Source: a virus. Taken from it: 64,000 nucleotides of DNA. The stretch lies in IMG/VR virus record IMGVR_UViG_3300031087_000014; one strand, written 5' to 3'. This document shows positions 46,130-62,386 of the stretch, piece after piece. Made by a program: the position numbers and the translations under genes. The notes under the pieces were generated by a model that was not told the origin of the DNA, did no database searches, and saw nothing but the letters and a program-made list of their open reading frames with translations. Numbering within the stretch: the first letter of the stretch is position 1; each line of letters starts with the position of its first letter.

Positions 46130-46160
46130 ATAAAAAACCCCTACCCAAAAGGGCAGGGGC
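46130..46160 (-). terminator. terminator ending the tRNA operon
   Basis: GCCCCTGCCC-TTTT-GGGTAGGGGT plus T run. Confidence 0.85.
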
Positions 46161-46164
46161 TTAA

Positions 46165-46308
46165 ACTTTGCCTGCGTTGAAGAGTCGCAGCCCTCTAGCT
46201 TGCCTTTCGGCTACTCTTTGAAGGAACTAGGCATTAGTCTTCGAAGATGGACACATAAAGTGTCCGTAGAAATCATACTAGGTATGTCTCTACACCGCTG
46301 GCGCGGAT
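46165..46308 (-). ncRNA. candidate structured ncRNA at the operon 3' end
   Basis: consecutive hairpins including GCC-GAAA-GGC, plus an AAGAGT/ACTCTT possible pseudoknot. Confidence 0.4.
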
Positions 46309-46309
46309 A

Positions 46310-46383
46310 TGGTTGCTCCAGCAGGTAACGATCCTGCTTCTGTCGCTTATCAGGCGACTGTAATACCTTTATACTATAGAGCA
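46310..46383 (-). tRNA. tRNA-Ile(GAT)
   Basis: GTCGC-CTGATAA-GCGAC; encoded CCA; T-loop ATCGTTA. Confidence 0.85.
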
Positions 46384-46389
46384 ATTGAT

Positions 46390-46470
46390 TGGCACGTAGG
46401 TGATGATTCGAACACCTAAACTAACGGGTTTGGAAGCCGTCTCCTGACCACCAGGATTAGTGACCCACGT
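46390..46470 (-). tRNA. tRNA-Trp(CCA), atypical
   Basis: loop TTCCAAA, G73, CCA end; aberrant D region and mismatches in anticodon and T stems. Confidence 0.55.
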
Positions 46471-46477
46471 ATTTATT

Positions 46478-46556
46478 TGGTGGAGAATAAGAGACTTGAA
46501 CTCTTCTGGTATCCTCGGTGCAAGCGAGGTGTCCACTCCTGGCAGACCCATTCCCC
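46478..46556 (-). tRNA. tRNA-Ala(TGC)
   Basis: G3:U70; CCTCG-CTTGCAC-CGAGG. Confidence 0.9.
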
Positions 46557-46561
46557 TAATT

Positions 46562-46706
46562 TGGCATCGTAGAAAGGAATCGAACCCCTCAGAGTAGGCG
46601 ATCAACTCTACCTGTGACCCTCATCACTTGGGAGATTAGCTACATCACCACCTCCGTCGAGGAAGTATCTCGTAACCATCTTTCCTTTGCTTTGTATCAC
46701 TACGAC
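46562..46706 (-). ncRNA. 145-nt tRNA-like RNA A
   Basis: acceptor GTCGTAG/CTACGAT-G-CCA and T-arm with TTCGATT enclosing a multi-hairpin insert. Confidence 0.65.
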
Positions 46707-46730
46707 ATTTTATTTGGTGATCATTTCATT

Positions 46731-46816
46731 TGGTACATCAGGTGAGACTCGAACTCACACGTCACAAGGACACTGGAACCTAAATCCAGGGCGTCTACCA
46801 ATTTCGCCACTGATGC
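46731..46816 (-). tRNA. tRNA-Leu(TAG)
   Basis: class II; CTGGA-TTTAGGT-TCCAG. Confidence 0.92.
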
Positions 46817-46823
46817 ATTTGTT

Positions 46824-46890
46824 TAGTGGAATCGTGCAGATTCGAACTGCATCCGGCTCCCTACGGGAACCAGTCACCCAAATCAATTCC
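46824..46890 (-). ncRNA. 67-nt minimal tRNA-like RNA (tmRNA-TLD-like fold)
   Basis: GGAATTG/CGATTCC acceptor, stemless D loop, one 9-bp hairpin, perfect T-arm, ends ACTA. Confidence 0.6.
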
Positions 46891-46897
46891 GAGTGTT

Positions 46898-46979
46898 TGG
46901 AAGCGAGAGCGGAAGTCGAATCCGCAATTTTCAGGGTATGAGCCTAACGTGATCTATATATCCGTTTCACTATCTCGCT
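46898..46979 (-). tRNA. tRNA-Met(CAT) (initiator/elongator/Ile2 status unresolved)
   Basis: TTAGG-CTCATAC-CCTGA; enlarged D loop; U73. Confidence 0.8.
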
Positions 46980-47063
46980 ATTGTTAAATCAGCTTTAAAC
47001 TAAAAGCATTATCCACGGCCCTATCAGACTCCTATCTTCAATTAGGGAATCGTAGCCTTGATA

Positions 47064-47136
47064 TGGTGCAGATGCAAGGATTCGAACCTCGAACAAACAC
47101 CTTCGTAGAGTGTTGCCTGTCCATCAGGACACCTGC
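47064..47136 (-). tRNA. tRNA-Arg(ACG)
   Basis: ACACT-CTACGAA-GGTGT; CCA end. Confidence 0.8.
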
Positions 47137-47141
47137 AAAAA

Positions 47142-47216
47142 TGGTGCGACCTGCTGGTAACGATCCAGCCTTTCTGCCTTTTCAGGGCAGCACACATCCG
47201 TCTATGTCAAAGTCGC
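47142..47216 (-). tRNA. tRNA-Phe(GAA)
   Basis: CTGCC-CTGAAAA-GGCAG; T-loop ATCGTTA. Confidence 0.85.
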
Positions 47217-47250
47217 TTTGAAACCGATATCATCTTCGATTTCTATTGTT

Positions 47251-47328
47251 TGGTCAGTGCAGGGTGAATCGAACACCCGACCTCCTGCTCCCAAAGCAGG
47301 CGCTGCTACCAGGCTGAGCTATGCACTG
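47251..47328 (-). tRNA. tRNA-Pro(TGG)
   Basis: C1:G72; CCTGC-TTTGGGA-GCAGG. Confidence 0.92.
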
Positions 47329-47334
47329 AATATT

Positions 47335-47411
47335 TGGGGTGGCTAATGGGACTCGAACCCACATAGAACTGCATCACAGGCAGCGTCATTAAGCCATTAT
47401 GATATAGCCAC
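47335..47411 (-). tRNA. tRNA-His(GTG)
   Basis: GTGGCTA/TAGCCAC-C-CCA; loop CTGTGAT; no encoded G-1. Confidence 0.9.
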
Positions 47412-47443
47412 ATCTTAGTGCTCTCATTGAAAACACTAAAATT

Positions 47444-47518
47444 TGGCAGAGGTGAGAGGAGTTGAACCTGCTGCTACGGGAGTCAAAGGCCCGTGTGCTA
47501 CCATTACACCACACCCCT
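47444..47518 (-). tRNA. tRNA-Gln(TTG)
   Basis: loop CTTTGAC, G73, CCA. Confidence 0.85.
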
Positions 47519-47524
47519 AGTATT

Positions 47525-47669
47525 TGGCGAACAGGAAGGAGTCGAACCTTCGTACACATCCTTTGGCGAGGCTATGTATTCTTGAATGCCCATACTAATT
47601 ATGTTTTGTTAGTCAAACAAGCGCCAACTTGCGAACCCTAACGCTACACTTTCATATTGCATCTATCCG
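47525..47669 (-). ncRNA. about 145-nt tRNA-like RNA B
   Basis: T-arm GAAGG-TTCGACT-CCTTC and CCA end; 5' CGGATAG can pair with CTGTTCG; no anticodon arm. Confidence 0.55.
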
Positions 47670-47675
47670 ATAATT

Positions 47676-47747
47676 TGTTGAAGCTAGAAGATAAATCTTC
47701 ATTTGTCAATCTCGGAAGTGACAAGTTTTGCATTAAACTATAGCTTC
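47676..47747 (-). pseudogene. degenerate tRNA-like element
   Basis: perfect acceptor GAAGCTA/TAGCTTC, enlarged anticodon loop, non-consensus T-loop, ends AACA. Confidence 0.5.
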
Positions 47748-47753
47748 TTTTTT

Positions 47754-47841
47754 TGGTATCGTGGACGGGATTCGAACCCGTAAGCAGAAAACTGCGCCAG
47801 ATTGAAAGTCTGGTTACTTAGGCCAATTTGTATACCACGAT
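47754..47841 (-). tRNA. tRNA with Glu anticodon (TTC) on a class II long-variable-arm body
   Basis: CCAGA-CTTTCAA-TCTGG, variable arm GCAG-TTTT-CTGC, A73. Confidence 0.85.
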
Positions 47842-47847
47842 ATAATT

Positions 47848-47924
47848 TGGAGCGAGATATCGGATTCGAACCGATGACGAACTGCTTGGAAGGCAGACAC
47901 TCTACCAGACTGAGTTAAACTCGC
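47848..47924 (-). tRNA. tRNA-Gly(TCC)
   Basis: GCG start, U73, loop CTTCCAA. Confidence 0.9.
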
Positions 47925-48050
47925 AATGTTGAAGGGCTAGCTGTGTGCTGCATATAGAGACATTGCACACCCACGCTGTAAATATTCTCGTTGGAAAACA
48001 CTTACAGAGATCTCTACTGGTATCCAGTTATTCCCCTTCTTGGGATACTC

Positions 48051-48101
48051 CGCGCTACGCTTCACAGCGTTTCGTCTTATTTCAAAGACTCATCAGGCGC
48101 G
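48051..48101 (-). ncRNA. type I hammerhead ribozyme
   Basis: CGCGC CUGAUGA GUCUU-UGAAAU-AAGAC GAAA CGCU-GUGA-AGCG UA GCGCG: complete core and three Watson-Crick stems. Confidence 0.92.
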
Positions 48102-48434
48102 TTTGCTTGATAATATACGATCACGTAGACCTTTTATGTGCCGTCGCGGTCACAACCTGTTATGATAAATCACAGTGCAGGTAGGGGAGAGGGTATAACA
48201 TTTCTGCTATCTCGTGTCGCCCTCTCTAAACAACCTCCATCACTAAAGACTGGACGCTATTGTTATTTGTGGGACAGTGACGGATATCCCTTTGCTGACT
48301 AGGCTACGTTCGGGACTGCTACCTTACAATGTTACAAGCTGTTGCGAATAACTCTGCTCGGTGCTCTCGACAAGAAGTACCCGCTGATACTATGCTCTTG
48401 TCATCCATACTCGCGGTCAAGCTTTCTGGTCATC

Positions 48435-48510
48435 TGGTGCTTGCAGCAGGACTTGAACCCGCGACCCACTGATTACAAAACAGTAGCTCTACCAACTGAG
48501 CTATACAAGC
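48435..48510 (-). tRNA. tRNA-Thr(TGT)
   Basis: loop TTTGTAA; canonical D and T arms. Confidence 0.9.
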
Positions 48511-48511
48511 T

Positions 48512-48685
48512 TTATCTTAATGGAATACCTTTGTATTCTCTTGAACGTATCAGTGCTTCTCTTCGTTTACGAGCTTCACGTTTTACGTTGTTTGGTGAAC
48601 GAGGATATTCACTGTAGACTTGAAAAGTTCTATTAACTTCTCTTGGTTCATCAAAGGAACCTATGGTCTGCTTCTGGAATGTCAT
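48512..48685 (-). CDS. small basic hypothetical protein
   Basis: ATG 48685 after AGGAG; lies between tRNA genes. Confidence 0.6.
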   Translation of the reverse strand: MTFQKQTIGSFDEPREVNRTFQVYSEYPRSPNNVKREARKRREALIRSREYKGIPLR

Positions 48686-48700
48686 ATCATTCTCCTGTAT

Positions 48701-48778
48701 TGGCGATCCTAGCAGGACTCGAACCTGCAACCGGTGGATTAACAGTCCACTGCTCTAACCAATTATAGCTATAGAATC
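48701..48778 (-). tRNA. tRNA-Asn(GTT)
   Basis: GTGGA-CTGTTAA-TCCAC; G73. Confidence 0.92.
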
Positions 48779-48784
48779 ATTGTT

Positions 48785-48869
48785 TGGTGAAATCTACTTT
48801 TCGAGCTTGTATCCCCGAAGGACTGAGTGATATAGATCACGCCATCTCGTCTTCCCTTATTTCGATTTC
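48785..48869 (-). ncRNA. 85-nt CCA-ended non-tRNA
   Basis: GAAATC/GATTTC-A-CCA terminal stem; internal hairpins including a C-TTCG-G loop; no T-loop. Confidence 0.5.
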
Positions 48870-48875
48870 ATTATT

Positions 48876-48957
48876 TGGTGGGGCTGCCTGGATTCGAACC
48901 AGGGCGTGGTATGCCTGATTTACAGTCAGGTGCGTTCGGCCTCTCCGCCACATCCCC
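48876..48957 (-). tRNA. tRNA-Tyr(GTA)
   Basis: CCTGA-CTGTAAA-TCAGG; A73. Confidence 0.92.
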
Positions 48958-48976
48958 TTAAACTTTATTTATCAAT

Positions 48977-49005
48977 ACTATATCATAAAAGTATTCAGAA
49001 GTAAA
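48977..49005 (-). promoter_or_regulatory. sigma70-type promoter within the tRNA cluster
   Basis: TTTACT-17 bp-TATAGT with TG extension. Confidence 0.6.
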
Positions 49006-49025
49006 GATTTATTTTACTTTTTGTT

Positions 49026-49102
49026 TGGTGCATCGCGGAGGATTCGAACCTCCAGTATTCTGATTAAAAGTCAGATGCCTTATCCAGTTTAGCTAGCGAT
49101 GC
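49026..49102 (-). tRNA. tRNA-Lys(TTT)
   Basis: TCTGA-CTTTTAA-TCAGA. Confidence 0.92.
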
Positions 49103-49103
49103 G

Positions 49104-49197
49104 TGGAGGAGAATATCAGACTTGAACTGATACGCCGCGTTTCCGCGACTACTGAGTGTTTAGCAAACACTTCCCTTACCGTTAGGGTTAATTCTCC
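49104..49197 (-). tRNA. tRNA-Ser(GCT)
   Basis: AGTGT-TTGCTAA-ACACT; long variable arm; U73. Confidence 0.88.
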
Positions 49198-49238
49198 GTT
49201 ACTTCTTATCGGTGTGATTTCTCACTCAATATCTTAGT

Positions 49239-49314
49239 TGGCGGGGATAGAGGAAATCGAATCCTCGGCTCCGCAGTGACAGTGCGGTATTTTTACCAAC
49301 TAAACTATATCCCC
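49239..49314 (-). tRNA. tRNA-Asp(GTC)
   Basis: CCGCA-CTGTCAC-TGCGG; G73. Confidence 0.92.
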
Positions 49315-49320
49315 TTAATT

Positions 49321-49411
49321 TGGAGGAAGGTAATGGAGTCGAACCATCATCGGCTATTAACCGATGGGCTGGTTTTCAAGACCAGTTACTCACCGCTGAG
49401 TCCTACCTTCC
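49321..49411 (-). tRNA. tRNA-Ser(TGA)
   Basis: CTGGT-CTTGAAA-ACCAG; long variable arm; U73. Confidence 0.88.
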
Positions 49412-49452
49412 TTTAAGTAGTTGTTAACTAACAATCTTCTCTACTTAATACC

Positions 49453-49481
49453 AATGTACCACGTATTTGATTGTCTGTCAA
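49453..49481 (-). promoter_or_regulatory. sigma70-type promoter
   Basis: TTGACA-17 bp-TACATT with TG extension. Confidence 0.7.
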
Positions 49482-49498
49482 CAACTATTTTAAACTAT

Positions 49499-49678
49499 TT
49501 ACTGCTTGGTAGAACGAGCGCGTTCACGCTTAGTTTTACCAGTACGGATGCGGTGAGACACTTTCTTCACTTCGCCGTTGATGGTAATTTCAACTGGCTT
49601 ACTTTCAGTCTGAGTAGACTTGCTCTCAAACTGGAAAGGCTGAATGATTTTGTCTACTGCGCTTACTTTCTTACCCAT
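49499..49678 (-). CDS. small basic hypothetical protein
   Basis: MGKKVSAVDK..., AAGGAG RBS. Confidence 0.65.
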   Translation of the reverse strand: MGKKVSAVDKIIQPFQFESKSTQTESKPVEITINGEVKKVSHRIRTGKTKRERARSTKQ

Positions 49679-49877
49679 TATGTCTCTCCTTATATGATTT
49701 ATTTTTAAATTGTGCCTCTCTGTCGCCATAAGCGAGGCTACTTACTATGATCGGAAAACAAAAAGTTACAATAACTTTTAAAAACGATGGCTTGTATATT
49801 TCATTAAGTTGTGCTCGACAAGAAGGCTAGTCTACAAACGCTACAACTTTAAATCAACGCATATACCAGACGCAAAC

Positions 49878-49954
49878 TGGCACTCCGTGAGGGATTCGAA
49901 CCCCCAACCTAGAGAGTAGAAATCTCTTGCGCTATCCAATTGCGCTAACGGAGC
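49878..49954 (-). tRNA. tRNA-Arg(TCT)
   Basis: AGAGA-TTTCTAC-TCTCT; A20; canonical arms. Confidence 0.92.
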
Positions 49955-49990
49955 AAATATTCTCTTTAACCTTGTTGGTCAGTGAGGTAA

Positions 49991-50176
49991 CTATACTACA
50001 GTTTCAGTAATAAAGTCAACATCTTTTTTAAACTTTCTTTTCTTGTTCCCAAAAATAACTCCACATACAGAGCACTTCTGACCTGGAGCTACTAAATCTC
50101 TATCGCAGCCACACCATACTCGCACTTTCTTTGGTGACTTGGCCTTTACTCTATTCGAATGTCTTTTGTAAGTCAA
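49991..50176 (-). CDS. small basic Zn-ribbon-like protein
   Basis: WCGCD...KCSVCG; TTG start after GGAG. Confidence 0.55.
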   Translation of the reverse strand: MTYKRHSNRVKAKSPKKVRVWCGCDRDLVAPGQKCSVCGVIFGNKKRKFKKDVDFITETVV

Positions 50177-50327
50177 TCTCTTTTCTCCCTTCACGACGAG
50201 CTTTCTTTCTTTTTGCTCGGTCAATTACTTTTCTGACAGTCCAGTGTCGCTGAGTTCGATCAGGATGGAAGCAGCAACCCCAACCACAGATAGAGTTATC
50301 TTTTTCTGTGTGTCCATATGGTTTCAT
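50151..50327 (-). CDS. small basic hypothetical protein (58 aa, not in ORF track)
   Basis: MKPYGHTEKDNSICGWGCC...KKARREGRKEI; GGAGGT RBS. Confidence 0.6.
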   Translation of the reverse strand: MKPYGHTEKDNSICGWGCCFHPDRTQRHWTVRKVIDRAKRKKARREGRKEIDLQKTFE

Positions 50328-50408
50328 TATTACCTCCGATAAAAATAATAAGAAAGAGTGTTTCTTTATTATTACTTCTAAAGAAAGCCCCCGAAGGGGC
50401 TTATAAAA

Positions 50409-51017
50409 TTACTTGCCGTTGTTAACGGTAACACCCTGGCGCTGAGCATCAGCACGAGCGATTTCCAGACGAGTTTCACGTTCTGCGGTAATCTGACCTT
50501 TCAGATCTTTGTTCTGCTCTTCGAGGAAGGCAATACGCTGTTCAAAAGATTTCTCGTTAGCTTCGAACTGAGCGATGGCTACGCGATGGTTTGATTCGAT
50601 TGCAGACTTCTGAGCGTTAAACGCGATTGCTGCTGAACGTTCACCTGCTGCTTTGGCTTCTGCCAGAGCGTCTTCGTTAGAATCCTGAGCCACAGCCAGA
50701 TCTGAACGGAGGGTAGCCAGTTCTTTAGGATCGATAGTTACCAGAGTACGAGATTTCAGAAGAGTACCAAGTACTTTATCTTCGTCTTCAATTACTTTCA
50801 GTTTCAGTTCAGCAGAAGCTTCACGGAATTTAGTATCGAACTGCTGATTCAGGTTATCCAGATCATTCTGCTTGTATTCGATATCAGTCGCCAGAGAAAC
50901 AGCTTGGTCAGCGATTGCTGCCAGATCCTGGGTGATTTTAACCAGGCCAGTTGCTGCGGTGTTCAGTGCTTTAGTAGAACGATCTGCTACGGTGATTACT
51001 TTTTTAACTTCTGACAT
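50409..51017 (-). CDS. coiled-coil hypothetical protein
   Basis: 202 aa; GAGGAG RBS; followed by a GCCCC-TTCG-GGGGC terminator. Confidence 0.8.
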   Translation of the reverse strand: MSEVKKVITVADRSTKALNTAATGLVKITQDLAAIADQAVSLATDIEYKQNDLDNLNQQFDTKFREASAELKLKVIEDEDKVLGTLLKSRTLVTIDPKELATLRSDLAVAQDSNEDALAEAKAAGERSAAIAFNAQKSAIESNHRVAIAQFEANEKSFEQRIAFLEEQNKDLKGQITAERETRLEIARADAQRQGVTVNNGK

Positions 51018-51098
51018 ATCTATATTCTCCTCTAAGAATTATTTATTTTTGATTAGTAATCTGTCCACTATATTAGTGAACAGAGCATTAAACAAAGT

Positions 51099-51205
51099 TG
51101 GAGCCGGATGGTGGAGTCGAACCACCTATGTATTCACATCACCCTAAAAGTGAATGCTGTTTTCGGGCTTTGATGGCCCCGCCCTTACCCAAGGGCTTAT
51201 CCGGC
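51099..51205 (-). tRNA. atypical tRNA with UCA (opal/Sec) anticodon
   Basis: GCCGGAT/ATCCGGC-T-CCA; 6-bp D stem with 4-nt loop; loop CATCAAA; very long variable region; perfect T-arm. Confidence 0.65.
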
Positions 51206-51207
51206 GT

Positions 51208-51333
51208 TGGTTGATGCGTAACAGGACTCGAACCTGCAATGTGTGAGTCATCGGCGGCTTCCGGTAAGCTACGGCGCTCAACCGTAGTAGATTCCCTATT
51301 CCCCCGCGTCTACCTATTTCGCCAGACGCATCA
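51208..51333 (-). ncRNA. 126-nt tRNA-Leu-like RNA with extended acceptor and expanded centre
   Basis: D arm GGCGAAATAGGTAGACGC, T-arm with TTCGAGT, TGATGCGT/ACGCATCA-A-CCA. Confidence 0.65.
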
Positions 51334-51350
51334 TTGTTTCAACGAGGAGG

Positions 51351-51380
51351 ATATTAACACGGTTTTTGATACCGTGTCAA
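51351..51380 (-). promoter_or_regulatory. promoter at the head of the RNA island, with a spacer palindrome
   Basis: TTGACA-18 bp-TAATAT; ACACGGT-N7-ACCGTGT spans the spacer. Confidence 0.65.
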
Positions 51381-51553: not shown

Positions 51554-51562
51554 AATCGCTCC

Positions 51563-52156: not shown

Positions 52157-53872
52157 TTATTTCAGATACTTGCTCACCGTTTCATCCAAGATGCAGCGAA
52201 CTTCGTCGATACTTACGTCAACAACCATTTGGCTATTGCGGAAGATTTCTTTCAGTTCATTGCGCTCTGACGAGATATCGGAGAAAGACAAACCATCTTC
52301 CAATACCAGATCTCCATCTGGGCTAGCCACTACAGCCAAGAATCCACGAGCAGAACGTTTACCTAAGTCGGTTTTTGGTTCCTTGCTTACAAGAATCTCG
52401 TTACCGTCAATGATACAACCTGTAGCTTTACAAGCAAAGCCGAAAGTATCACGAGTGCTGTAGTTGTAAGTGTAACTACCAACACCAAGAACGATATTGC
52501 TCGATGCAAAACCATTCGCCTCCAGACGTTTGAAGATTTCCTTGGTCAGACTAACAGTAATACTGTCACCGTAGATCAGGCCAATATGTTCATCCAGAAC
52601 TTTGTAGCCCTTACTGTTGACAGTGCCGCCAAAGGTTTCCCACAGAATCTGAATAGTACCTACAGCTTCGTGACGGGGAATCTCATATACTTCGTTGATG
52701 CTGGCGTTAATGGTACGATCACCAGTAATATCGTAGTATTTGTCACGGTCTTCCAGGTAAATAACTTCTGTACTAATTCCAACACTCGAAGTCTGCATTG
52801 TCTGCCAATCTTTGAAGCTTTCAATCTTGTAACCGCAAATAATATGCAGGGGCTTACCGCTATCTGGACGGATAACTAATTTACCGTCACGTTCCATAAT
52901 CTCTTCTTTCAAGAGAGGAAGGATCTCAGTGACCAGCGCCCAATAGTCATAACTATCTGCCACGTAAGACACGATGCCGTCAGGGTAAATCTGAGTGACA
53001 TACTTACGCAAGAATTCCAGTTCAGAGAAGAAGCGTTGTTCATCAACGTTCATTGCTGCAAAACCATCAACTTCGATCATCAGTTTAGCCAAGATATCAC
53101 TAATGTTGGTGGTAGCTACGCTGTGTTCTGATGCTGGGATGCTTCCAGCTACAAAGGTATCTTCGCCGTAGTAGAAATCATCTACGTAGCAAACTGCACG
53201 TAATGTGTCAGTACCTTTAAATGCCAGTAAGTGACCGAAGCCTGAACGATAGCCATCATCGATACCAGATAAGCCACGAGCAGAGAAATCGTGAAACTGG
53301 AAGGCTAAGTGATCTTTGCTGTCACAAGTAGATTCAGCGTAAGACTCACCCAGCAGACGATACTGGAATGCGATAGTCGCATTGTTCATTGTCTTCCAGG
53401 TTTCTGCACTCAGCATAGTTTCCAGATAGTTCACCAACCAAGCAAAGCCTGCTACTGTATTGTGAATCGTATAAACTGGAACCTGAATCGGACACAGTAC
53501 ACCTTCTGGTAGCGCTCGTACAGACAGAGGCAAATAACCTAAGTCGTGCAGTGCTTCGATGTGATCAGTGCGATTCTGACGACCGTTATAGCGAGTCATA
53601 AACTTAGAGTATTCCGCAACGACTTCATCTTTTGGACGAGAGAAGAAGTTTTCATTCCAATCGTCAATCAGTCGTTCTTTAATCACGCCCTGGATACCAG
53701 CAGCAATTACGCCGCGAGGTGCATTAGGTGCGTAATGCGGGAAGTACTTATCACCGCGAGGGGTGAAGTTAGAAAACAGGATTTCCATATTGTCAGCGTA
53801 CTGGTCAATGTGGCTTGGTTTGTAACCGTCAGTGTTGAACAGTGGGTTTTTAATACGTTTAGCCATAATCAT
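52157..53872 (-). CDS. nicotinamide phosphoribosyltransferase-like protein (Namat candidate)
   Basis: TDGYKPSH..QY, HDFSARG, GTDT, ASEHS, VADSYD, VIRPDSG, IYGDSIT, TRDT.GFA.KAT; start chosen after AAGGAG. Confidence 0.92.
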   Translation of the reverse strand: MIMAKRIKNPLFNTDGYKPSHIDQYADNMEILFSNFTPRGDKYFPHYAPNAPRGVIAAGIQGVIKERLIDDWNENFFSRPKDEVVAEYSKFMTRYNGRQNRTDHIEALHDLGYLPLSVRALPEGVLCPIQVPVYTIHNTVAGFAWLVNYLETMLSAETWKTMNNATIAFQYRLLGESYAESTCDSKDHLAFQFHDFSARGLSGIDDGYRSGFGHLLAFKGTDTLRAVCYVDDFYYGEDTFVAGSIPASEHSVATTNISDILAKLMIEVDGFAAMNVDEQRFFSELEFLRKYVTQIYPDGIVSYVADSYDYWALVTEILPLLKEEIMERDGKLVIRPDSGKPLHIICGYKIESFKDWQTMQTSSVGISTEVIYLEDRDKYYDITGDRTINASINEVYEIPRHEAVGTIQILWETFGGTVNSKGYKVLDEHIGLIYGDSITVSLTKEIFKRLEANGFASSNIVLGVGSYTYNYSTRDTFGFACKATGCIIDGNEILVSKEPKTDLGKRSARGFLAVVASPDGDLVLEDGLSFSDISSERNELKEIFRNSQMVVDVSIDEVRCILDETVSKYLK

Positions 53873-53929
53873 ATCTCCTTTTCGTTTTCGATAGGGAGAG
53901 TCTACACCCTCCCTGATTATTGTCAATAC

Positions 53930-54820
53930 TTAGTTGTAGTATTTGTTCAAAATAACACGGCGACTGATCCCCTGGTTTAGTACGAGGATATCTTGGTCAA
54001 TCTCAACATTATCTTTCCAGACGTTAAGAGAGTGTACGCGGTCAATGATACCTTCCAGAGGACGAAGCCCTTTAGAGAAAATACCGTGAGTTACGTAGAG
54101 ATCTACACGTCCTGCGTTACGACTCTTGAGAAGTTCAGCTAGTTTGATGAATGTATAGCCGCCGTCACAGATATCATCCACGATGATTAGATTTCGACCT
54201 TTGAAGTCTTGGACAGAAATATCTGTGTGTTTGATAGCTCCAGTAGCAGTATCACGAATCTTTTCAGCACAGTAAACATCTACTCCACCTAATTCTTTCG
54301 CAACCTTGAAGATTTTCTTCAAAGCGCCAGCGTCAGGAGACACGATAGCGAAGTTATCCATTGGGATGTAGTGTCCCAGCATTTCTTTCACAATCTTCTC
54401 TTGTGGAATGATGGTGAGTCGGTCGATCAGTGCCGGAGTAACGTCACTGTGCGGATCTGCAATTACCACCTCTTCAAAGTCCCAGCTATTGATGATATTA
54501 GCAAACACCTTAAGCCCGAATGCCTCTCCTGCTTCACAAGGGCGATCCTGACGACCGTAAGGAACGTAGAGCATAATCAGCTTCACTGGAACACGGAAGT
54601 GAGCACAACGCGATATAGCGTCTTTAATCATACCTACTCGCATAAGGTCATCACTGCTGCGGATTTCTGCTTCAATAATCACTTCATCACCGTAAGAGAT
54701 TTCCTTTAATGCTTCTGGCAGAACAATGTGTTCTTCCCCAGCAGAGAATCGGAAAGACTTAACAGGACACTCAATCGTGTTCATATTAAAACCTAACATA
54801 GTGCGGATACTTACTTTCAT
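53930..54820 (-). CDS. ribose-phosphate pyrophosphokinase-like protein (Adps candidate)
   Basis: FSAGE, YVPYGRQDR, DPHS, VSPDAGA, IVDDICDGG.TF, YVTHGIFS. Confidence 0.92.
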   Translation of the reverse strand: MKVSIRTMLGFNMNTIECPVKSFRFSAGEEHIVLPEALKEISYGDEVIIEAEIRSSDDLMRVGMIKDAISRCAHFRVPVKLIMLYVPYGRQDRPCEAGEAFGLKVFANIINSWDFEEVVIADPHSDVTPALIDRLTIIPQEKIVKEMLGHYIPMDNFAIVSPDAGALKKIFKVAKELGGVDVYCAEKIRDTATGAIKHTDISVQDFKGRNLIIVDDICDGGYTFIKLAELLKSRNAGRVDLYVTHGIFSKGLRPLEGIIDRVHSLNVWKDNVEIDQDILVLNQGISRRVILNKYYN

Positions 54821-55703: not shown

Positions 55704-55791
55704 AATTCCTCCTGTTTCGTTTCGATGGATGTAATGTACTCCTTAACGACTTCACCTGTCAAACTCTTTTTGAAAATAATATCTTCTATAT

Positions 55792-56027
55792 AGATCTGTT
55801 GTTCCTTCGTCACAACATCTCTGTTATCTAAACTCACTTCGTTCGTTAAGATAAAACAACCTAAAACATTAAAAACAAAAGAAGTTATTACTACTCACTC
55901 CCTTCGGTCGTTCGTAGAAGATCAGTAGGGTAACACACTTTAAAACAAAAGTCAACAACAAAAGAATAAATATTTAAGTCTTTTGTCTTTAATACTCAGT
56001 ATGTTCGCTTCGCTCCCATACTTCGTA
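55792..56027 (-). repeat. array of four GAA-triloop hairpins with tandem G.A mismatches
   Basis: 55792-55822, 55824-55854, 55891-55917, 55993-56027; e.g. CTAC GA AC GA CC GAA GG GA GT GA GTAG. Confidence 0.75.
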
Positions 56028-56119
56028 AGAGAGGGTATCACAATTTAGACTAAAAATCAAGTTGTATTATGTTTTATTTAATGGTAGAGTGCAGGCTGTT
56101 TTTACAGAGGAGAATGAAA

Positions 56120-56643: not shown

Positions 56644-57753
56644 ATGAAGATTATCCCATTAAGTATTGCGAAGTCGTATGTAAGTCACTGGAGTTGGTGG
56701 GAAGGAGTGAGAGAACTCCTCCAGAACGCAGTTGACACAAAGGATTATGAGGTGCAAATCTCAGAGAAAAACGAGATCATCATTATCTCTCGCGGGGATC
56801 GTATCCCTGTCAGTGCATTGCTTATGGGTAAATCTGGCAAGCAGGATGATGACAGCACCATCGGAAAGTTTGGTGAAGGTATGAAACTTGCTTTCTTGGT
56901 ATTGGGGCGTCTAGGTGCAACAGTCGTAGTGCAAAACTATGATGAAGTGTGGCATCCTGCCTTCCAATGGAGTGATACTTTCCAGGAGGAATGTCTTTCT
57001 ATCGGAATCGTATCGGCTGTAGATATTGGAGAGGTTCAGATTACTATCTCCGGTGTTCCTGATGAAGTGTTGGAAGAGGTGAGCGATAAGTTTCTCCCTC
57101 TTCAAGACAGAACTCCTGAACATTCATCCCACAACGGAGAAGCCTACAAGAAAGATGCAGACGGCTGTGACCTGTATATCAATGGTATCTTCGTCACTAA
57201 TATGGAAGGTCGTTATAAATATGACTACAATTTCAGGCCATCGGCGTTTACGTTAGACCGAGATCGAAATACCGCAAAGGATTTTGAGGTTCGTTGGGAG
57301 GCAAGTGCATTATTGATGAATGCAAACCAGTTCTTGCTTATTGCTGAAATGGTGTCTGATGGATATCTGGATGTTGAGCACTTCAAATATCACAGTAGCT
57401 GTGCAACCCAGGAAGAGAAAGACGATATGGATAGCTTGGCTGTATCTCTGTTCTTCACGCAGCACGGAGAAAATGCTTGGGCTATCAACCGTAGCTGGGA
57501 GGACGGTAAACGCCGTCTCGTCACTAAGGCTTGTATTGATAAGGGATACATCCCTGTAGAAGTGCCGGATGGACTATATCATCTGCTGAAAGGTAAGTTT
57601 GCTGTTGACAAAGATATGCAGGAGGTGTTAAGCTTCAAGCCAATCGAGTTCTTAGAAGGTTTCCTTGCCGAGAACAAACGTCATATGCGGTCTAAGCCTG
57701 TACGTCAGTTGAAAGCCGTTATCGAACGACTCAAAATTATCCGAGGAGCTTAA
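56644..57753 (+). CDS. GHKL-type ATPase domain protein
   Basis: VRELLQNAVD, MG.SGK, IGKFGEGMKLA motifs. Confidence 0.75.
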   Translation: MKIIPLSIAKSYVSHWSWWEGVRELLQNAVDTKDYEVQISEKNEIIIISRGDRIPVSALLMGKSGKQDDDSTIGKFGEGMKLAFLVLGRLGATVVVQNYDEVWHPAFQWSDTFQEECLSIGIVSAVDIGEVQITISGVPDEVLEEVSDKFLPLQDRTPEHSSHNGEAYKKDADGCDLYINGIFVTNMEGRYKYDYNFRPSAFTLDRDRNTAKDFEVRWEASALLMNANQFLLIAEMVSDGYLDVEHFKYHSSCATQEEKDDMDSLAVSLFFTQHGENAWAINRSWEDGKRRLVTKACIDKGYIPVEVPDGLYHLLKGKFAVDKDMQEVLSFKPIEFLEGFLAENKRHMRSKPVRQLKAVIERLKIIRGA

Positions 57754-57951
57754 ATGAACCCGAACATTTATACATTATGGCTGGACGATCACAAAGTAGA
57801 ATCAACTCTCTCATACACTGAGGCAAAGAAGAAGTTTATGGAGTGGATCGATTTCACCAAAGAAAACAATGTCGCTTATCAAGCGGTAATCGTAACTAAG
57901 AATATGGAGGTATTACTTGAATATCGAAGGTCGAATCCCACTGCCAAATGA
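57754..57951 (+). CDS. hypothetical protein
   Basis: coupled ORF with GAGGAG RBS. Confidence 0.65.
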   Translation: MNPNIYTLWLDDHKVESTLSYTEAKKKFMEWIDFTKENNVAYQAVIVTKNMEVLLEYRRSNPTAK

Positions 57952-58180
57952 GACTGTGTTTGAGGCGAAGGAAGTCTTTTACACTTGCATTGGCAAAGGT
58001 GGCTTGTATCGTATCGTTGGTCGAGCGCGTGGAGCGGGTAAGTCTCGTGAGACAGGCGTGATCGTAGTATACGAAGATGTTAACTCGTTAGAGCATATGC
58101 CTTTCTTCCGTACTCTGGAGGACTTCCAGGATCGTATGCAAGAGGTGGACATTGATGAAGCAATCGCCGCTCAAGAGTAA
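57917..58180 (+). CDS. hypothetical protein (DUF1653-like)
   Basis: KGGLYRIVG.A...VVY...R....F..R pattern. Confidence 0.6.
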   Translation: MNIEGRIPLPNETVFEAKEVFYTCIGKGGLYRIVGRARGAGKSRETGVIVVYEDVNSLEHMPFFRTLEDFQDRMQEVDIDEAIAAQE

Positions 58181-58520
58181 CACAAAGAAAGCAGCCCCTA
58201 AAAAGGCTGCTCCAAAGAAACGCGCACCAGCGAAACCAAAAGTCAACCGGACTTTAAAGGTAGCGAAGGAAGCGCCTAAGAAAAAGAATAAGTTTGATAC
58301 AGAAGCGTTTACTTTTAGTACGCCTATAGAACACATTGAAGCAGCGCTGGAGCGCCTGGATAAACAGGACGCAGATCCAATGGCTGAACCATTTACAAAA
58401 GATGAAATCTATTGGATGGTGGTGTGGACGGAAATGTTACCGGAAGCTAAAAGACGTAAAATGACGCACGTCCCTTGTTGTGCGAAAGAACGCGCTGTTT
58501 TGAAGTTACCTAAATTATAG
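58152..58520 (+). CDS. hypothetical protein with a Lys/Ala/Pro-rich N-terminus
   Basis: KKAAPKKAAPKKRAPAKPK. Confidence 0.65.
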   Translation: MMKQSPLKSNTKKAAPKKAAPKKRAPAKPKVNRTLKVAKEAPKKKNKFDTEAFTFSTPIEHIEAALERLDKQDADPMAEPFTKDEIYWMVVWTEMLPEAKRRKMTHVPCCAKERAVLKLPKL

Positions 58521-58529
58521 GAGGATGAA

Positions 58530-58886
58530 ATGAAACCAGACACTATCCTGTGGTTGGATGATGTACGTGACCCTAAAAACTTTGGTATGGAAGGTGCTGT
58601 CTGGATCAAGACATTCTCAGACTTCGAAAATACTCTTCATACCTTGATCGAAGCGATGCAGGATGATAATATCGTTCACATCAGTTTTGATAATGACCTG
58701 GGCACTGAGGAAGAAGGGTATGATGGATTCTGTATCTTGGAGGAGTATCTTCATATGGGATACTTCGAAGGGCTGAAAAAGATCACAGTACATTCATCAA
58801 ACCCTAGCGCAGTTCATAAGTTTATGTTAGTATCTCGGGCAATGAAGGCTCACTTTGATATTGACCTTTTACGTACACCACTTTGA
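58530..58886 (+). CDS. cyclic-phosphate-processing receiver-domain protein
   Basis: LWLDDVRDP, ISFDNDLG...GYD, VHSSNP; first gene of the RNA repair cluster. Confidence 0.8.
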   Translation: MKPDTILWLDDVRDPKNFGMEGAVWIKTFSDFENTLHTLIEAMQDDNIVHISFDNDLGTEEEGYDGFCILEEYLHMGYFEGLKKITVHSSNPSAVHKFMLVSRAMKAHFDIDLLRTPL

Positions 58887-58895
58887 GGAGTAATT

Positions 58896-59810
58896 ATGAT
58901 TGACGTTAGCGTAGTTCTGGAATACCTTAAGGATTACCGCGAAGAACTGAAACAACCTATGGATCGTGTGCTGGCAAGAAAGGCATTGTTCACCAACGGT
59001 GTTCCAGTAATGAGCTTCGAGGAGATGGTTTCCTTTGATAGTGATGTTTTCGACGAAATGTTTGAATACTACATCACAACAGGACGTAAGCCAAGTCGCC
59101 GCCCTATATTGGAGCGTATTTACCCTTGGTTTGGATATGTAAAAGGTAATGTGTATTGGGGCAAAGCTGTAGATGTTGAGCGGCGTGCTCTGAGAAAAAT
59201 GCAGATGAAAGACTTGCATTACTCGGAGGATAATGTACACTTCGTATCGGATGTTCATTTCTTGCATAAGAATATCATCCATCACAACCGAAACAACATC
59301 TCAAACATTGATGAAATGCATCATCTGCTGATTGAAGCGTGGAACAAACAAGTGGGGCCAAACGATTTGGTGTTTGACTTGGGGGATCTCACCTTGGGTA
59401 GTATGACTAAGGGATTGGAATTACTTAAGCAGTTGAATGGCTTTATTATTCATCTGAAAGGAAACCACGTTAGTGAAAAGGAATGGGAGTATTACGATAT
59501 GAATCTCCCTAAACAAAAGTTTGTTGACAGTAGCTACTTATGCAGTACAATCAACGGGCAGAAGATTGCAATGTGTCACTTCCCGATTCTGAGTTGGGAC
59601 GATATGCACCGCGATAGCTGGCACCTGTTTGGTCACTGTCACGGAAGTAATGCAATGGAGCAGCATATGGGCAAGGCGATGGATGTTGGAGTAGATGCAA
59701 CTGTAGGCATTACTGAATCACTCCGTCCTGTCTCTATGGCAGAAGTAAGAACAGTTATGGCTGGCAAAAGAATTGTTAGCTGGGATCATCACGAAGTAGG
59801 AGGAAACTAA
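58896..59810 (+). CDS. calcineurin-like metallophosphoesterase
   Basis: SDVHF.H, LGD, GNH, CHFP, GHCH motifs. Confidence 0.9.
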   Translation: MIDVSVVLEYLKDYREELKQPMDRVLARKALFTNGVPVMSFEEMVSFDSDVFDEMFEYYITTGRKPSRRPILERIYPWFGYVKGNVYWGKAVDVERRALRKMQMKDLHYSEDNVHFVSDVHFLHKNIIHHNRNNISNIDEMHHLLIEAWNKQVGPNDLVFDLGDLTLGSMTKGLELLKQLNGFIIHLKGNHVSEKEWEYYDMNLPKQKFVDSSYLCSTINGQKIAMCHFPILSWDDMHRDSWHLFGHCHGSNAMEQHMGKAMDVGVDATVGITESLRPVSMAEVRTVMAGKRIVSWDHHEVGGN

Positions 59811-59811
59811 T

Positions 59812-60834
59812 ATGAGCAATATCAAATACCCGAGCACAAACCAGTTCCGTCAGGTAGTTAAGACAATGAAAACTCAACTGGAGTATGATCATTATAATCC
59901 AGAGACGCAGGAACACGTCACAAAGATTCCAGAAACGTATGTGATCCCTTACATCGGTACTGTGAAGATTCACGGCACCAACGGTAGCGTACTTTTCCGC
60001 TCAGAAACTGATTTCATCTTCCAATCAAAAGCCCAGCAGGTAGACATTGGGAAAGATAATGCCGGATTTGCAGCGTTTATGCATCGCAAAGATATGGATC
60101 TTCTGCTGGCGCGAGTACGTAAAGTATGTGAGGATCATAACGTAACATTTGAGTTCCCTGTCGAGATTGCTGGAGAGTGGGCAGGTCGTGGTATTCAGAA
60201 AGGCGTTGCTGTTACTGAGGTTGAACCATTCTTCGCTGTATTCCGTGTTGCAGTAGGTGAGCGTCCTAATGGCGGTCTGAAATGGCTTCCGACAGATATC
60301 ATCGGGCCAGTGTCTGATAATGAAAACCGGATCTTCAACATTCTACAGTTTGGCTTTGTTCCACTGGAGATTGACTTTGAAAATCCTCAGAATGTACAGA
60401 ACACCCTCGTATCTCTGACAGAAGAAGCAGAGAAAGAATGTCCGGCAGGTAAGTTCTTTGGTGTGTCTGGTATCGGTGAAGGTTATGTTTGGACTCCTGC
60501 TGATCCATCTCTGGCTATTGACTCTGGCTTGTGGTTTAAAGTGAAAGGCGATAAGCACTCTGTTTCTAAGGTTAAGACCTTGGCGGCAGTAGACCCTGAA
60601 CGTATGGCAAACATCGCTGAGTTTGTGGAATATGCCGTAACTGAAAATCGTCTGGAGCAGGCTCTGGGTGAAGTAGGCTTGGATAAGACCAAGATCGGAG
60701 AGTTTGTTAAGTGGATGTCTACAGACATTCTTAAAGAGGAAGGCGATGTTATGGAAGCCTCCGCTCTAACAATGAAAGATGTTGGTAAGAACATCTCTGA
60801 TAAATCCCGTAAATGGTATATGGCTAAACTGTAA
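59812..60834 (+). CDS. RNA ligase, Rnl2 family
   Basis: motif I KIHGTN, DNAGF, GEWAG, GEGYV, FKVK, and a C-domain with RL/DILKEE. Confidence 0.85.
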   Translation: MSNIKYPSTNQFRQVVKTMKTQLEYDHYNPETQEHVTKIPETYVIPYIGTVKIHGTNGSVLFRSETDFIFQSKAQQVDIGKDNAGFAAFMHRKDMDLLLARVRKVCEDHNVTFEFPVEIAGEWAGRGIQKGVAVTEVEPFFAVFRVAVGERPNGGLKWLPTDIIGPVSDNENRIFNILQFGFVPLEIDFENPQNVQNTLVSLTEEAEKECPAGKFFGVSGIGEGYVWTPADPSLAIDSGLWFKVKGDKHSVSKVKTLAAVDPERMANIAEFVEYAVTENRLEQALGEVGLDKTKIGEFVKWMSTDILKEEGDVMEASALTMKDVGKNISDKSRKWYMAKL

Positions 60835-60847
60835 GAGGAGAATTAAA

Positions 60848-61972
60848 ATGCAAGTAACTGACTTCCTGAAAACACCTGGTAACTCTCTGACCCTGTTAAC
60901 TCTGTCTACAGGCATAAAAGTGAAAGAATATCCAGAAGAGGGCTTATACGTCCTAAACTATGACCAGATAGATAGTCCAAAGACACATCCTCTGGTTATG
61001 GAGTGCCGAGCACTGATCCTTGACAGGGAGTTTAATGTGGTTGCTCGTTCATTTGACCGATTCTTCAACCTGAATGAAGCGCCGGATACACAGGCGCATT
61101 TAGATTGGGATATTGCTGAGATTGCTGATAAAGTAGATGGTAGTCTAATCAAACTGTACTACTGGAACGGTGCTTGGCGCTTCTCTACTCGTGGCACAGC
61201 ATTTGCTGAAAGCCAGTGTATGAATAGTGAATACACATTCCACGATCTTTGCGTCAAAGCTTCTAACGCTAGTTATATGGAAGAGGTAGAGGCGTCAGCA
61301 GAACTGGCTGATCTTGACCAGGGAGTTACATACCTACTGGAGCTTACTTGTCGTGAAAACCGAGTGGTAACAGTATATGAGGGCTATCATCTGCACTTCT
61401 TAGGTGCTCGTCGTAATGACACTGGTGAATATGTGACTGTCCCTAATAGTGCATTATGGGTGATGAACTGGAAAGCTGTTAATAAGTATAAGTTTAACAG
61501 TGCTCAAGCTTGTAAAGAGACAGCCGAAAAGCTTCCTAATCTGGCAGAAGGTTATGTTGTTTACCAGAATGGCATCCCTGTTTGTAAGGTGAAGTCTCCA
61601 GCATACGTTGCTGTCCACCATCTCCGAGGTAACGGTATCCCTTCTTTGAAGCGTATTGTTGATTTGGTTGCTGTGGGTGAAGAAGACGAGTATCTTACTT
61701 ACTTCCCAGAGGACAGAAAGTACTTTGATCCGGTGACTCAAGCTAAGGCTTGGATTATCAATCAGGCTGATGCTATGTGGCACGTAGCTAAAGATATTGA
61801 GGAACAGAAGAAGTTTGCCATTGTGGTGAAAGATCTGTCCTTTGCTTGGTTGCTGTTTCAAGCAAGAAAGGTAAACAAGGAGCCGTCTGAGGTGTTCAAC
61901 TCCGCTCCGCTGGAGAAGCGATCTAAGACAATCCTGAACTATGTCGAAAAAGCAGGGAATGCTTTGAAATAA
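60848..61972 (+). CDS. RNA ligase, Rnl1 (T4 RnlA-like) family
   Basis: ECRALIL, SFDRFFN, KVDGSL, TRG, EGYV, KVKS..Y. Confidence 0.88.
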   Translation: MQVTDFLKTPGNSLTLLTLSTGIKVKEYPEEGLYVLNYDQIDSPKTHPLVMECRALILDREFNVVARSFDRFFNLNEAPDTQAHLDWDIAEIADKVDGSLIKLYYWNGAWRFSTRGTAFAESQCMNSEYTFHDLCVKASNASYMEEVEASAELADLDQGVTYLLELTCRENRVVTVYEGYHLHFLGARRNDTGEYVTVPNSALWVMNWKAVNKYKFNSAQACKETAEKLPNLAEGYVVYQNGIPVCKVKSPAYVAVHHLRGNGIPSLKRIVDLVAVGEEDEYLTYFPEDRKYFDPVTQAKAWIINQADAMWHVAKDIEEQKKFAIVVKDLSFAWLLFQARKVNKEPSEVFNSAPLEKRSKTILNYVEKAGNALK

Positions 61973-61981
61973 GGAGGAAAA

Positions 61982-62386
61982 TTGAAGAATTTCTATATCA
62001 TTCGTGGTGTATCTGGGAGTGGCAAGTCCACTCTCGCTAAAACAATGTCTGAGGCTCTTGGAGCTTCACATTTAGAAGCTGATATGCTGCTATACAATAA
62101 CCAAGGAGAATACGTCTGGACAAAAGAAGGCGTATCTGAGGCACATCGACAGACTGCGATTCATCTGTATCACTTAATGGAGTCAGGTGAGTCTAATATA
62201 ATTCTGTCCGATACCTCTGCAAAACAAAAAGATATGCAAAAATACCTTGATCTGGCTAAAGAGAAGGGTTACACTACGACAGTGATTGTAGTTGAGAACC
62301 GTCACGGCGGTAAGTCCATTCACGATGTAAGCGAGGAAACACTAGCTAAACAACGTGATCGTATCCGAAGCACTATTTCACTCTAA
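61982..62386 (+). CDS. polynucleotide kinase-like P-loop protein
   Basis: RGVSGSGKSTLA, EAD, SIHDV; follows the RNA ligases. Confidence 0.75.
   Translation: MKNFYIIRGVSGSGKSTLAKTMSEALGASHLEADMLLYNNQGEYVWTKEGVSEAHRQTAIHLYHLMESGESNIILSDTSAKQKDMQKYLDLAKEKGYTTTVIVVENRHGGKSIHDVSEETLAKQRDRIRSTISL

Follow-up and report, generated by a model that had tools for sequence, protein, structure and literature searches.

Layout of the region

The 64,000-nt stretch of phage DNA analysed here (the window) comes from a 141,261-bp IMG/VR virus record, IMGVR_UViG_3300031087_000014, with an estimated completeness of 96%. Its positions 46130-62386 hold a minus-strand tRNA island, whose spacers contain five tRNA-like elements (E1-E5) and a hammerhead ribozyme joined to a conserved 131-nt RNA, followed by a gene pair for NAD+ salvage and by a plus-strand cluster of five genes for the repair of RNA ends (Table 1). 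The source is a lytic phage, a distant relative of the Vequintavirinae; its Rnl2-type RNA ligase is ∼62% identical to ‘RNA ligase 2’ of Klebsiella phage KNP2 and Salmonella phage PVP-SE1. Only one close relative was found, G001, an IMG/VR fragment of 83 kb that is collinear with the window and 79-94% identical to it over the tRNA island and the repair genes. A preliminary description of the region, made from the sequence, had proposed that the ribozyme, the tRNA-like RNAs and the repair genes form one system.

Table 1. Positions in the window of the features of the region, with the evidence for each
Feature	Position	Strand	Evidence or description
Intrinsic terminator, end of island	46135-46162	-	12-bp stem, 7 G-C pairs, T tract
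tRNA array	46310-49954	-	18 genes by ARAGORN plus two extra Rfam tRNA matches
E1	46390-46470	-	81 nt; 7-bp terminal stem, GUUCGAAUC T-loop, G+CCA
E2	46562-46706	-	145 nt; acceptor-type stem, GUUCGAUUC T-loop, G+CCA
E3	46827-46890	-	64 nt; a mini tRNA-like RNA with acceptor stem, a single long helix and T-arm; ends A-CUA
Met-like tRNA	46901-46979	-	Rfam 51.2 bits; anticodon loop CUCAUAC, giving CAU; added by Rfam to the ARAGORN set
E4	47525-47669	-	145 nt; acceptor-type stem, GUUCGACUC T-loop, CCA
Atypical tRNA-shaped RNA	47679-47747	-	Rfam tRNA 36.1 bits; added by Rfam to the ARAGORN set
131-nt double-pseudoknot RNA	47925-48055	-	5′ end at the hammerhead cut (predicted 5′-OH), 3′ bound at tRNA-Gly
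Type I hammerhead ribozyme	48051-48101	-	Read from sequence; Rfam match; covariation
Structured insert between tRNA-Thr and hammerhead	48115-48431	-	317 nt, helix-rich; absent from G001
E5	48785-48870	-	86 nt; 7-bp terminal stem and CCA, no T-loop
Second sigma-70-like promoter, before tRNA-Ser	49453-49481	-	TTGACA-17-TACATT, 10/12; consensus match only
76-aa ORF in Arg-Ser spacer	49499-49729	-	Shine-Dalgarno; without family match
Sigma-70-like promoter before first tRNA (Arg-UCU)	49990-50019	-	TTGACT-18-TATAGT, 10/12; consensus match only
tRNA-Sec-like gene	51103-51205	-	Rfam tRNA-Sec 36.5 bits, E 1.4e-4; gathering score 47 bits not reached
NAMPT-type phosphoribosyltransferase	52157-53926	-	PF04095 1.2e-30
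PRPP synthetase	53930-54820	-	PF00156/PF14572
Upstream genes of the plus-strand unit	56644-58520	+	369-aa GHKL/sacsin-like ATPase candidate and three small uncharacterised proteins
cREC (cyclic-phosphate-processing receiver) protein	58530-58886	+	PF20274 2.1e-15, 57.6 bits vs cut-off 27
Calcineurin-like metallophosphoesterase, 3′-end healing candidate	58896-59810	+	PHROG 547 6.9e-44; PDB 1xm7 2.5e-5
Rnl2-type RNA ligase	59812-60834	+	PF09414 31.2 bits vs 27; PHROG 548 3.7e-68; KIHGTN motif
Rnl1-type RNA ligase	60779-61972	+	PF09511 70 bits vs 28.3; T4 Rnl1 structures E 1.6e-15
134-aa P-loop kinase, 5′-end healing candidate	61982-62386	+	PF13671 (AAA_33) 48.1 bits vs 27

A hammerhead ribozyme in the tRNA island

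The presence of a hammerhead, claimed in the preliminary description, is borne out by a complete core, three stems in type I topology and covariation, with cleavage as a prediction. Read on the minus strand from 48101 to 48051, the ribozyme is CGCGC-CUGAUGA-G-UCUU-(UGAAAUA)-AAGA-C-GAA-ACGCU-(GUGA)-AGCGU-A-GCGCG. Stem I (48101-48097/48055-48051) has 5 bp and is open, while stems II and III are capped, the latter by the loop GUGA. The core consists of CUGAUGA (C3-U4-G5-A6-N7-G8-A9), GAA (G12-A13-A14) and the G10.1-C11.1 and A15.1-U16.1 pairs, and it is invariant in 14 homologues except at N7. Pairing in the stems across these homologues is 100/96/100%, with compensatory changes at two pairs of stem II and one pair of stem III; stem I is invariant. 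The cleavage triplet (NUH) is GUA in the window and in contig L018 and GUC in all other homologues. As judged from the sequence, the RNA should be cut after GUA, between 48056 and 48055, and the cut would leave a 2′,3′-cyclic phosphate on the upstream RNA and a 5′-OH on the 131-nt RNA.

With its full core, three stems, GUA/GUC site and location in intergenic RNA of a phage, the ribozyme resembles the bacterial and phage type I hammerheads (RF00163, clan CL00010; Perreault et al. 2011, PMC3088659). It differs from them in its fusion to a conserved 131-nt double-pseudoknot RNA that begins with the 3′ strand of stem I, in a stem I of just 5 bp, in scores below the Rfam gathering thresholds and in that self-cleavage is here a prediction. 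The theta (HDV-like) ribozymes of gut phages (PMC10879173) are likewise small ribozymes among phage tRNA genes, and the hammerhead, like them, would help to cut the precursor. Unlike them, it is of another class, would act for the RNA attached to it and not for a tRNA 3′ trailer, and leads a unit that is also present far from any tRNA.

A conserved double-pseudoknot RNA attached to the ribozyme

An alignment (A2) was made of 14 distinct sequences, the window copy and prophage copies included, and in all of them the ribozyme is joined to a conserved RNA of ∼125-131 nt. The helices of the window RNA are 48048-48043/48025-48020, 48039-48034/47936-47931, 48016-48010/47961-47955, 48007-47997/47986-47976 and 47970-47965/47948-47943. 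The double-pseudoknot model comprises 49 pairs, with 98.3% of the alignment cells paired and compensatory changes at 19 pairs, a level that was reached in 0 of 500 shuffles (slid controls gave 1-6). For the second long-range helix, the paired sequences are GAAGGG/CCCUUC in the window, GCCGGG/CCCGGC in the prophages, GGCGGG/CCCGCC in Pectobacterium phage Pappous and GUAGGG/CCCUAC in contig L008. An initial model with one pseudoknot and a simple CCCC/GGGG hairpin was replaced by one with a GUAUCC/GGAUAC helix and a covarying long-range helix (alignment columns 66-71/169-174).

No Rfam family matched the 131-nt RNA at E<=10, and at this threshold HDV-like, twister, hatchet, pistol, Drum, tmRNA and riboswitch identities were all rejected. 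An HDV-like (theta) topology, with a P3 hairpin between the P2 and P1 strands and cleavage immediately 5′ of P1, was rejected as well: the 8 nt between the two strands leave no room for P3, and the first helix starts 7 nt after the 5′ end. Weak tmRNA matches do occur in another carrier, contig L014, where they lie upstream of the hammerhead unit. The search with RF00163 overlooked the known copy in G001, and its ‘no hammerhead’ results are weak for that reason; a custom covariance model, R1, was used instead. The window copy scored 171.7 bits with R1 and is the single copy in the genome. We found no description of a hammerhead-led RNA of this type in the literature. The hammerhead-led double-pseudoknot RNA is an undescribed, mobile RNA family.

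One carrier, L008:11239-11440 (minus strand; IMGVR_UViG_3300020052_000106), has a circularly permuted unit in the order 3′ domain, hammerhead, 5′ domain. The permuted copy keeps the covarying helices GCUAUC/GAUAGC, UAGAGAC/GUCUCUA and GUAGGG/CCCUAC, and therefore a joining of the 3′ and 5′ ends of the RNA fits the fold.

Distribution of the unit

With the Thr-Gly spacer as query, blastn gave matches in 4 of 50,697 phage records, those of the T7-like Enterobacter phage SDFMU_EhYP, Pectobacterium phages Pappous and Taid, and Dickeya phage Setonix; the match begins within the hammerhead and extends to the last base ahead of tRNA-Gly. A 20-mer from the conserved stretch was found in 19 IMG/VR contigs, and the unit is present in 15 of 5,426 complete E. 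coli genomes. An 18-mer scan of one genome per species gave 10 matches, all rejected as chance since the flanking motifs were missing.

The genomic positions of the unit are diverse. It lies between the Q antiterminator and holin genes in an E. coli lambdoid prophage and in contig L009, follows the capsid gene in EhYP and stands immediately ahead of tRNA-Met in Pappous. Between tRNA-Thr and tRNA-Gly it is found in both members of the present lineage: the G001 copy begins 10 nt past tRNA-Thr and ends immediately ahead of tRNA-Gly, while in the window the 317-nt insert splits the unit from tRNA-Thr. Over its first ∼200 nt this insert is ∼65% identical to the Thr-Gly spacer of phAPEC8-like phages (L004:1305-1626); it has no Rfam match. 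The EhYP and E. coli prophage copies are 96% identical, which argues for recent horizontal transfer between unrelated phage families. Judged by these sequences, the unit is portable among lambdoid, T7-like and large lytic phages of enterobacteria, and it would work on its own in other phages.

Such positions bring to mind a cis-acting processing or stability element, a natural counterpart of the RiboJ insulator. Self-cleavage would detach the upstream RNA, and the folded cap with its 5′-OH would shield the downstream RNA from 5′-end-dependent decay; in the window, the unit would simply divide the tRNA precursor into two halves. As an insulator might, the unit always lies just upstream of genes or tRNAs, in leaders or intergenic spots with strong transcription. 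In the prophage/EhYP subfamily it is further enclosed by an ∼18-bp closing helix (duplex energies of −20 to −27 kcal/mol, z −4 to −5.6), formed between the 26 nt that precede stem I and the 30 nt that follow the RNA; the flanks examined were those of L002, L005, L006, L007, L009, L012, L017 and L019. The closing helix is missing from the window, L016 and Pappous copies. Still, the RNA has long invariant stretches across phages of different families and hosts, which argue for a specific partner over a generic cap, and in tRNA arrays RNase P would remove the cap from the downstream RNA. Generic insulation is a tentative alternative, which we regard as possible though rather unlikely.

The RNA repair cluster and its relation to the ribozyme

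The classical answer to tRNA-cutting defences is a tRNA array beside a healing-and-sealing kit. The contiguous genes named in the preliminary description, for a cyclic-phosphate receiver, a phosphoesterase, a probable Rnl2-type ligase, Rnl1 and a P-loop kinase, are indeed present, at 58530-62386 on the plus strand, and a gene for an ATP-dependent DNA ligase comes next. The cREC gene is linked to those of the phosphoesterase and the two ligases as in an operon; the activity of the cREC family itself is a prediction (PMC7824862), and a bait search with this protein in IMG/VR found nothing. The metallophosphoesterase carries the motifs DVH (at 119), DLGD (near 162) and GNH (near 189) and has no Pfam match at 0.01. 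The candidate Rnl2-type ligase, with no sequence match in PDB, scores only 28 bits against TIGR02307 (cut-off 197). The Rnl1-type ligase has KVDG at residue 118 and matches the T4 Rnl1 structures 2c5u/5tt6; its score of 82.8 against the NCBIfam equivalog falls short of the cut-off of 242. The kinase matches PHROG 505 ‘polynucleotide kinase’ (6.9e-11) and, in NCBIfam, generic kinase models, and has the Walker A motif GVSGSGKS; its single-sequence AlphaFold model (pLDDT 45.8) was too poor for a structure search. On paper, the kit appears complete: cREC and the metallophosphoesterase would heal the 3′ end and the kinase the 5′ end, and Rnl1 and Rnl2 would seal.

Operons of cRec and RNA ligase genes are known in phages (Iyer et al. 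2021, PMC7824862; Burroughs and Aravind 2016, as cited there), and tRNAs, RNA repair and NAD+ salvage have been described as a counter-defence trio of phages (Iyer et al. 2021, PMC7824862). The tRNAs encoded by phages overcome PARIS, retron effectors and PrrC-type nucleases (PMC11464382, PMC11555353, PMC10264068). As in T4 tRNA repair (Pnkp with Rnl1, and Rnl2) and in the cRec-ligase operons (PMC7824862), a P-loop kinase, a candidate 3′-end phosphoesterase, Rnl1, a probable Rnl2-type ligase and cREC occur together, in one operon of a phage also rich in tRNAs and NAD+ salvage genes. Unlike in T4, healing would be spread over three small proteins (cREC, the metallophosphoesterase and the 134-aa kinase) rather than assigned to one Pnkp, and both ligase families stand side by side. 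The KNP2-type Vequintavirinae, the nearest by Rnl2, have a phosphatase and Rnl2, with no second RNA ligase annotated in the cluster. Most likely, the repair operon of the window mends tRNAs cut by host anticodon nucleases.

The proposal that ribozyme and kit form one system had started from the end chemistry shared by hammerheads and anticodon nucleases, which agrees with established knowledge, as the two kinds of cut leave identical ends. Under this proposal the healing and sealing enzymes of the phage would act on the hammerhead-made ends, either clearing the 2′,3′-cyclic phosphate so that the tRNA-Thr trailer could be trimmed or phosphorylating the 131-nt RNA and sealing it by re-ligation or circularisation. 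Besides the matching chemistry, it draws on the presence of both parts in both members of the lineage, on the permuted L008 copy, whose fold is compatible with joining of the 3′ and 5′ ends, and on the position of the G001 hammerhead 10 nt after tRNA-Thr, where the cut would therefore leave a cyclic-phosphate trailer on that tRNA.

The distribution of the two parts tells a different story. Rnl1 (PF09511) was not found in any of seven complete carriers of the unit (G003, G004, G006, G007, G008, EhYP and Pappous), and a PF09414 (Rnl2-type) ligase was not found in any of the five complete carriers searched for it. The PF09511 search picked up G001, so it was able to detect the Rnl1 family. Lambdoid prophages and T7-like phages of 40-48 kb are among the carriers that have neither ligase. 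Conversely, covariance model R1 did not find the unit in KNP2, phiPMW or phAPEC8, which have the ligases and/or tRNA arrays; KNP2 and Pseudomonas phage phiPMW are repair-kit phages. Of the 50,697 phage records, 157 have a homologue of the Rnl2-type ligase and 1,551 one of the Rnl1-type ligase, against 4 with the unit by blastn. In the window the ribozyme occupies 1 of ∼25 junctions of the array. The upstream end of the island and the repair cluster are 8.6 kb apart, not ∼7 kb as first estimated, are divergently transcribed and have the NAD+ salvage genes between them. Re-sealing a hammerhead site would, moreover, be futile, since renewed cleavage by the ribozyme would follow. The module that the hammerhead leads is portable and recurs in phages without such a kit, and the proposed link is therefore unsupported; we consider a single pathway very unlikely.

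A variant of the same idea makes the 131-nt RNA a portable trans-acting RNA for counter-defence or translation support, whose ribozyme-made 5′-OH would be phosphorylated by the kinase nearby and which the ligases would then seal, possibly into a circle. If this were true, hammerhead and repair kit would constitute one RNA-maturation pathway, and the 131-nt RNA would stand in the same niche as phage tRNAs. We rate this as very improbable. Matching end chemistry and proximity do not by themselves make evidence for a pathway.

The tRNA array and its tRNA-like elements

The tRNAs of the array are Arg-UCU, Ser-UGA, Asp, Ser-GCU, Lys, Tyr, Asn, Thr, Gly, Glu, Gln, His, Pro, Phe, Arg-ACG, a Met-like tRNA (CAU), Leu-UAG, Ala, Ile and one atypical RNA. 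The last, 100% identical in G001, has a 7-bp acceptor stem, an ∼10-nt anticodon-type loop and a 4-nt T-loop, and CCA is not encoded. Beyond the island lies the tRNA-Sec-like gene with anticodon UCA, on which ARAGORN was silent; its fold has a 7-bp acceptor stem, a 6-bp D stem with a 4-nt loop, an ∼37-nt variable arm and U73+CCA. Recoding of UGA as a reason for the UCA tRNA was rejected, as the window gives no sign of it (stops of long frames: TAA 39, TGA 8, TAG 2). The 18 ARAGORN genes, the two Rfam additions and the tRNA-Sec-like gene give 20-21 tRNAs, so that the early count of about 21 holds. Host RNase P and 3′ processing enzymes would do most of the cutting of this promoter-to-terminator array of ∼20 tRNAs.

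The tRNA order in G001 is identical, with tRNA-Ala, E3 and two spacers missing. G001 in turn has a 409-nt insertion between tRNA-His and tRNA-Pro (L049:2726-3146) that the window does not have, from which a fast turnover of array spacers follows. The Arg-Ser spacer, which holds the 76-aa ORF, is 94% conserved in G001. Another spacer (48511-48700, minus strand) holds a small ORF of ∼57 aa with a Shine-Dalgarno sequence, absent from G001.

When all spacers were folded and screened for terminal stems of 7 bp, the elements E1-E5 emerged, in agreement with the early claim of at least five tRNA-shaped or CCA-ended RNAs that are not tRNAs. All five spacers have tRNA-style terminal stems; E1-E4 carry a GUUCGANUC T-loop, and the 3′ end is CCA in E1, E2, E4 and E5 and CUA in E3. 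E1 has, in addition, a CUUCCAA loop (Gly-UCC-like) and an expanded D region. The Rfam tRNA model RF00005 gave no match over these spacers at E<=10, and ARAGORN was silent at its default setting, a relaxed threshold producing only an odd call in E2 with a 4-base anticodon. Identity in G001 is 97% for E1, 88% for E2, 96% for E4 and 100% for E5, and E3 is absent from this relative. In the 50,697 phage records the last ∼36 nt of E2 align to the 3′ halves of tRNA-Glu and those of E4 to the 3′ halves of tRNA-Trp; neither element has homologues there beyond these tRNA halves, and thus the elements are lineage-specific and tRNA-derived. Covariance across related phages, to which the preliminary description had looked, could be used with success for the hammerhead unit (19 compensatory pairs) and not for the E elements, since only two sequences, those of the window and G001, are at hand.

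An acceptor/T-arm minihelix with CCA suffices as a substrate for RNase P. The tRNA-like RNAs keep this part and therefore should be excised like tRNAs; a fair inference is that they would be released as stable RNAs. In the T4 tRNA cluster there are genes for two non-tRNA RNAs, RNAC and RNAD. These are stable small RNAs whose function is still unknown (PMC9697503). The E elements resemble this pair, of ∼120-145 nt, their nearest precedent, as non-tRNA RNAs amid phage tRNA genes, a likeness in size and setting; they differ in being known from the present lineage alone.

Could the CCA-ended tRNA-like RNAs be decoys or sponges for tRNA-targeting nucleases or for defence proteins directed at translation, and might the hammerhead-led RNA be one as well? 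Retention of the minihelix with CCA would suit such a role, as would the conservation, between the window and G001, of four of the five elements at least as well as of true tRNAs. Phage tRNAs are proven counter-defence tools, and the hammerhead-led RNA sits in the same genomic niches as they do. The narrow distribution of the elements points the other way (E2 and E4 are without homologues beyond the tRNA halves, and E3 is missing from the only relative), and tRNA genes in decay, or rearranged ones, that simply travel with the array would explain them just as well. We find the decoy role unlikely.

Neighbouring genes

The NAD+ salvage pair, NAMPT and PRPP synthetase, is situated between the tRNA island and the repair kit. 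An equivalent neighbourhood in phiPMW consists of tRNAs, Rnl1, Pnkp, Prs and NAMPT. A bait search with NAMPT retrieved only G001 and one 120-kb fragment that has no nearby tRNAs, no Rnl1 and no hammerhead unit. The divergent junction of the minus- and plus-strand units, at 55780-56040, contains several short hairpins with CGAAG-type loops. The upstream genes of the plus-strand unit match PHROG 6077, 15683, 12584 and 6208; the 369-aa ATPase candidate has weak HATPase_c_3 and NF047352 matches, and KNP2 has an ‘ATPase’ at the equivalent position.

A probable set of co-located modules for translation and counter-defence

The best explanation of the region, with a probability of about two in three, is that it is a set of co-located, independently mobile accessory modules, each serving translation or counter-defence: tRNAs, the hammerhead-led RNA, NAD+ salvage and RNA repair. 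The presence of these parts, their family membership, the covariation of the RNA and the independent distribution were established directly, and from them we infer the processing steps, the substrates of the enzymes and the role in counter-defence. The first module would be the tRNA array with its interspersed lineage-specific tRNA-derived RNAs, excised like tRNAs. The second would be the imported unit, in which the hammerhead would free the 5′ end of the 131-nt RNA and RNase P would set the 3′ end at tRNA-Gly. The NAD+ salvage pair would form the third module and the divergent repair operon the fourth.

Several points weigh against this reading. The hammerhead scores below the Rfam gathering thresholds, with 30.9 vs 48.5 bits for RF00008 (E-value of 1e-4 for the spacer, 6.5e-6 for the genome), and its relatives likewise, with 28.7 vs 34 bits for RF00163; plausibly, the low scores come from long loops and from the use of a type III model on a type I RNA. 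Polynucleotide specificity of the kinase is a prediction, as are the activities of cREC and the phosphoesterase. Finally, both known members of the lineage, the window and G001, carry the hammerhead unit and the repair kit together. This co-occurrence is a single phylogenetic observation, and a lineage-specific use of the kit on the unit is possible, not indicated.

The repair kit and the tRNA array are equipment of the textbook counter-defence type and hence ordinary. Less ordinary is the ribozyme of the phage tRNA precursor, as part of an undescribed RNA unit that is horizontally mobile and has a well-supported double-pseudoknot fold. The unit is short, easy to mutate and present in the cultured phages EhYP, Pappous, Taid and Setonix, and is thus directly testable.

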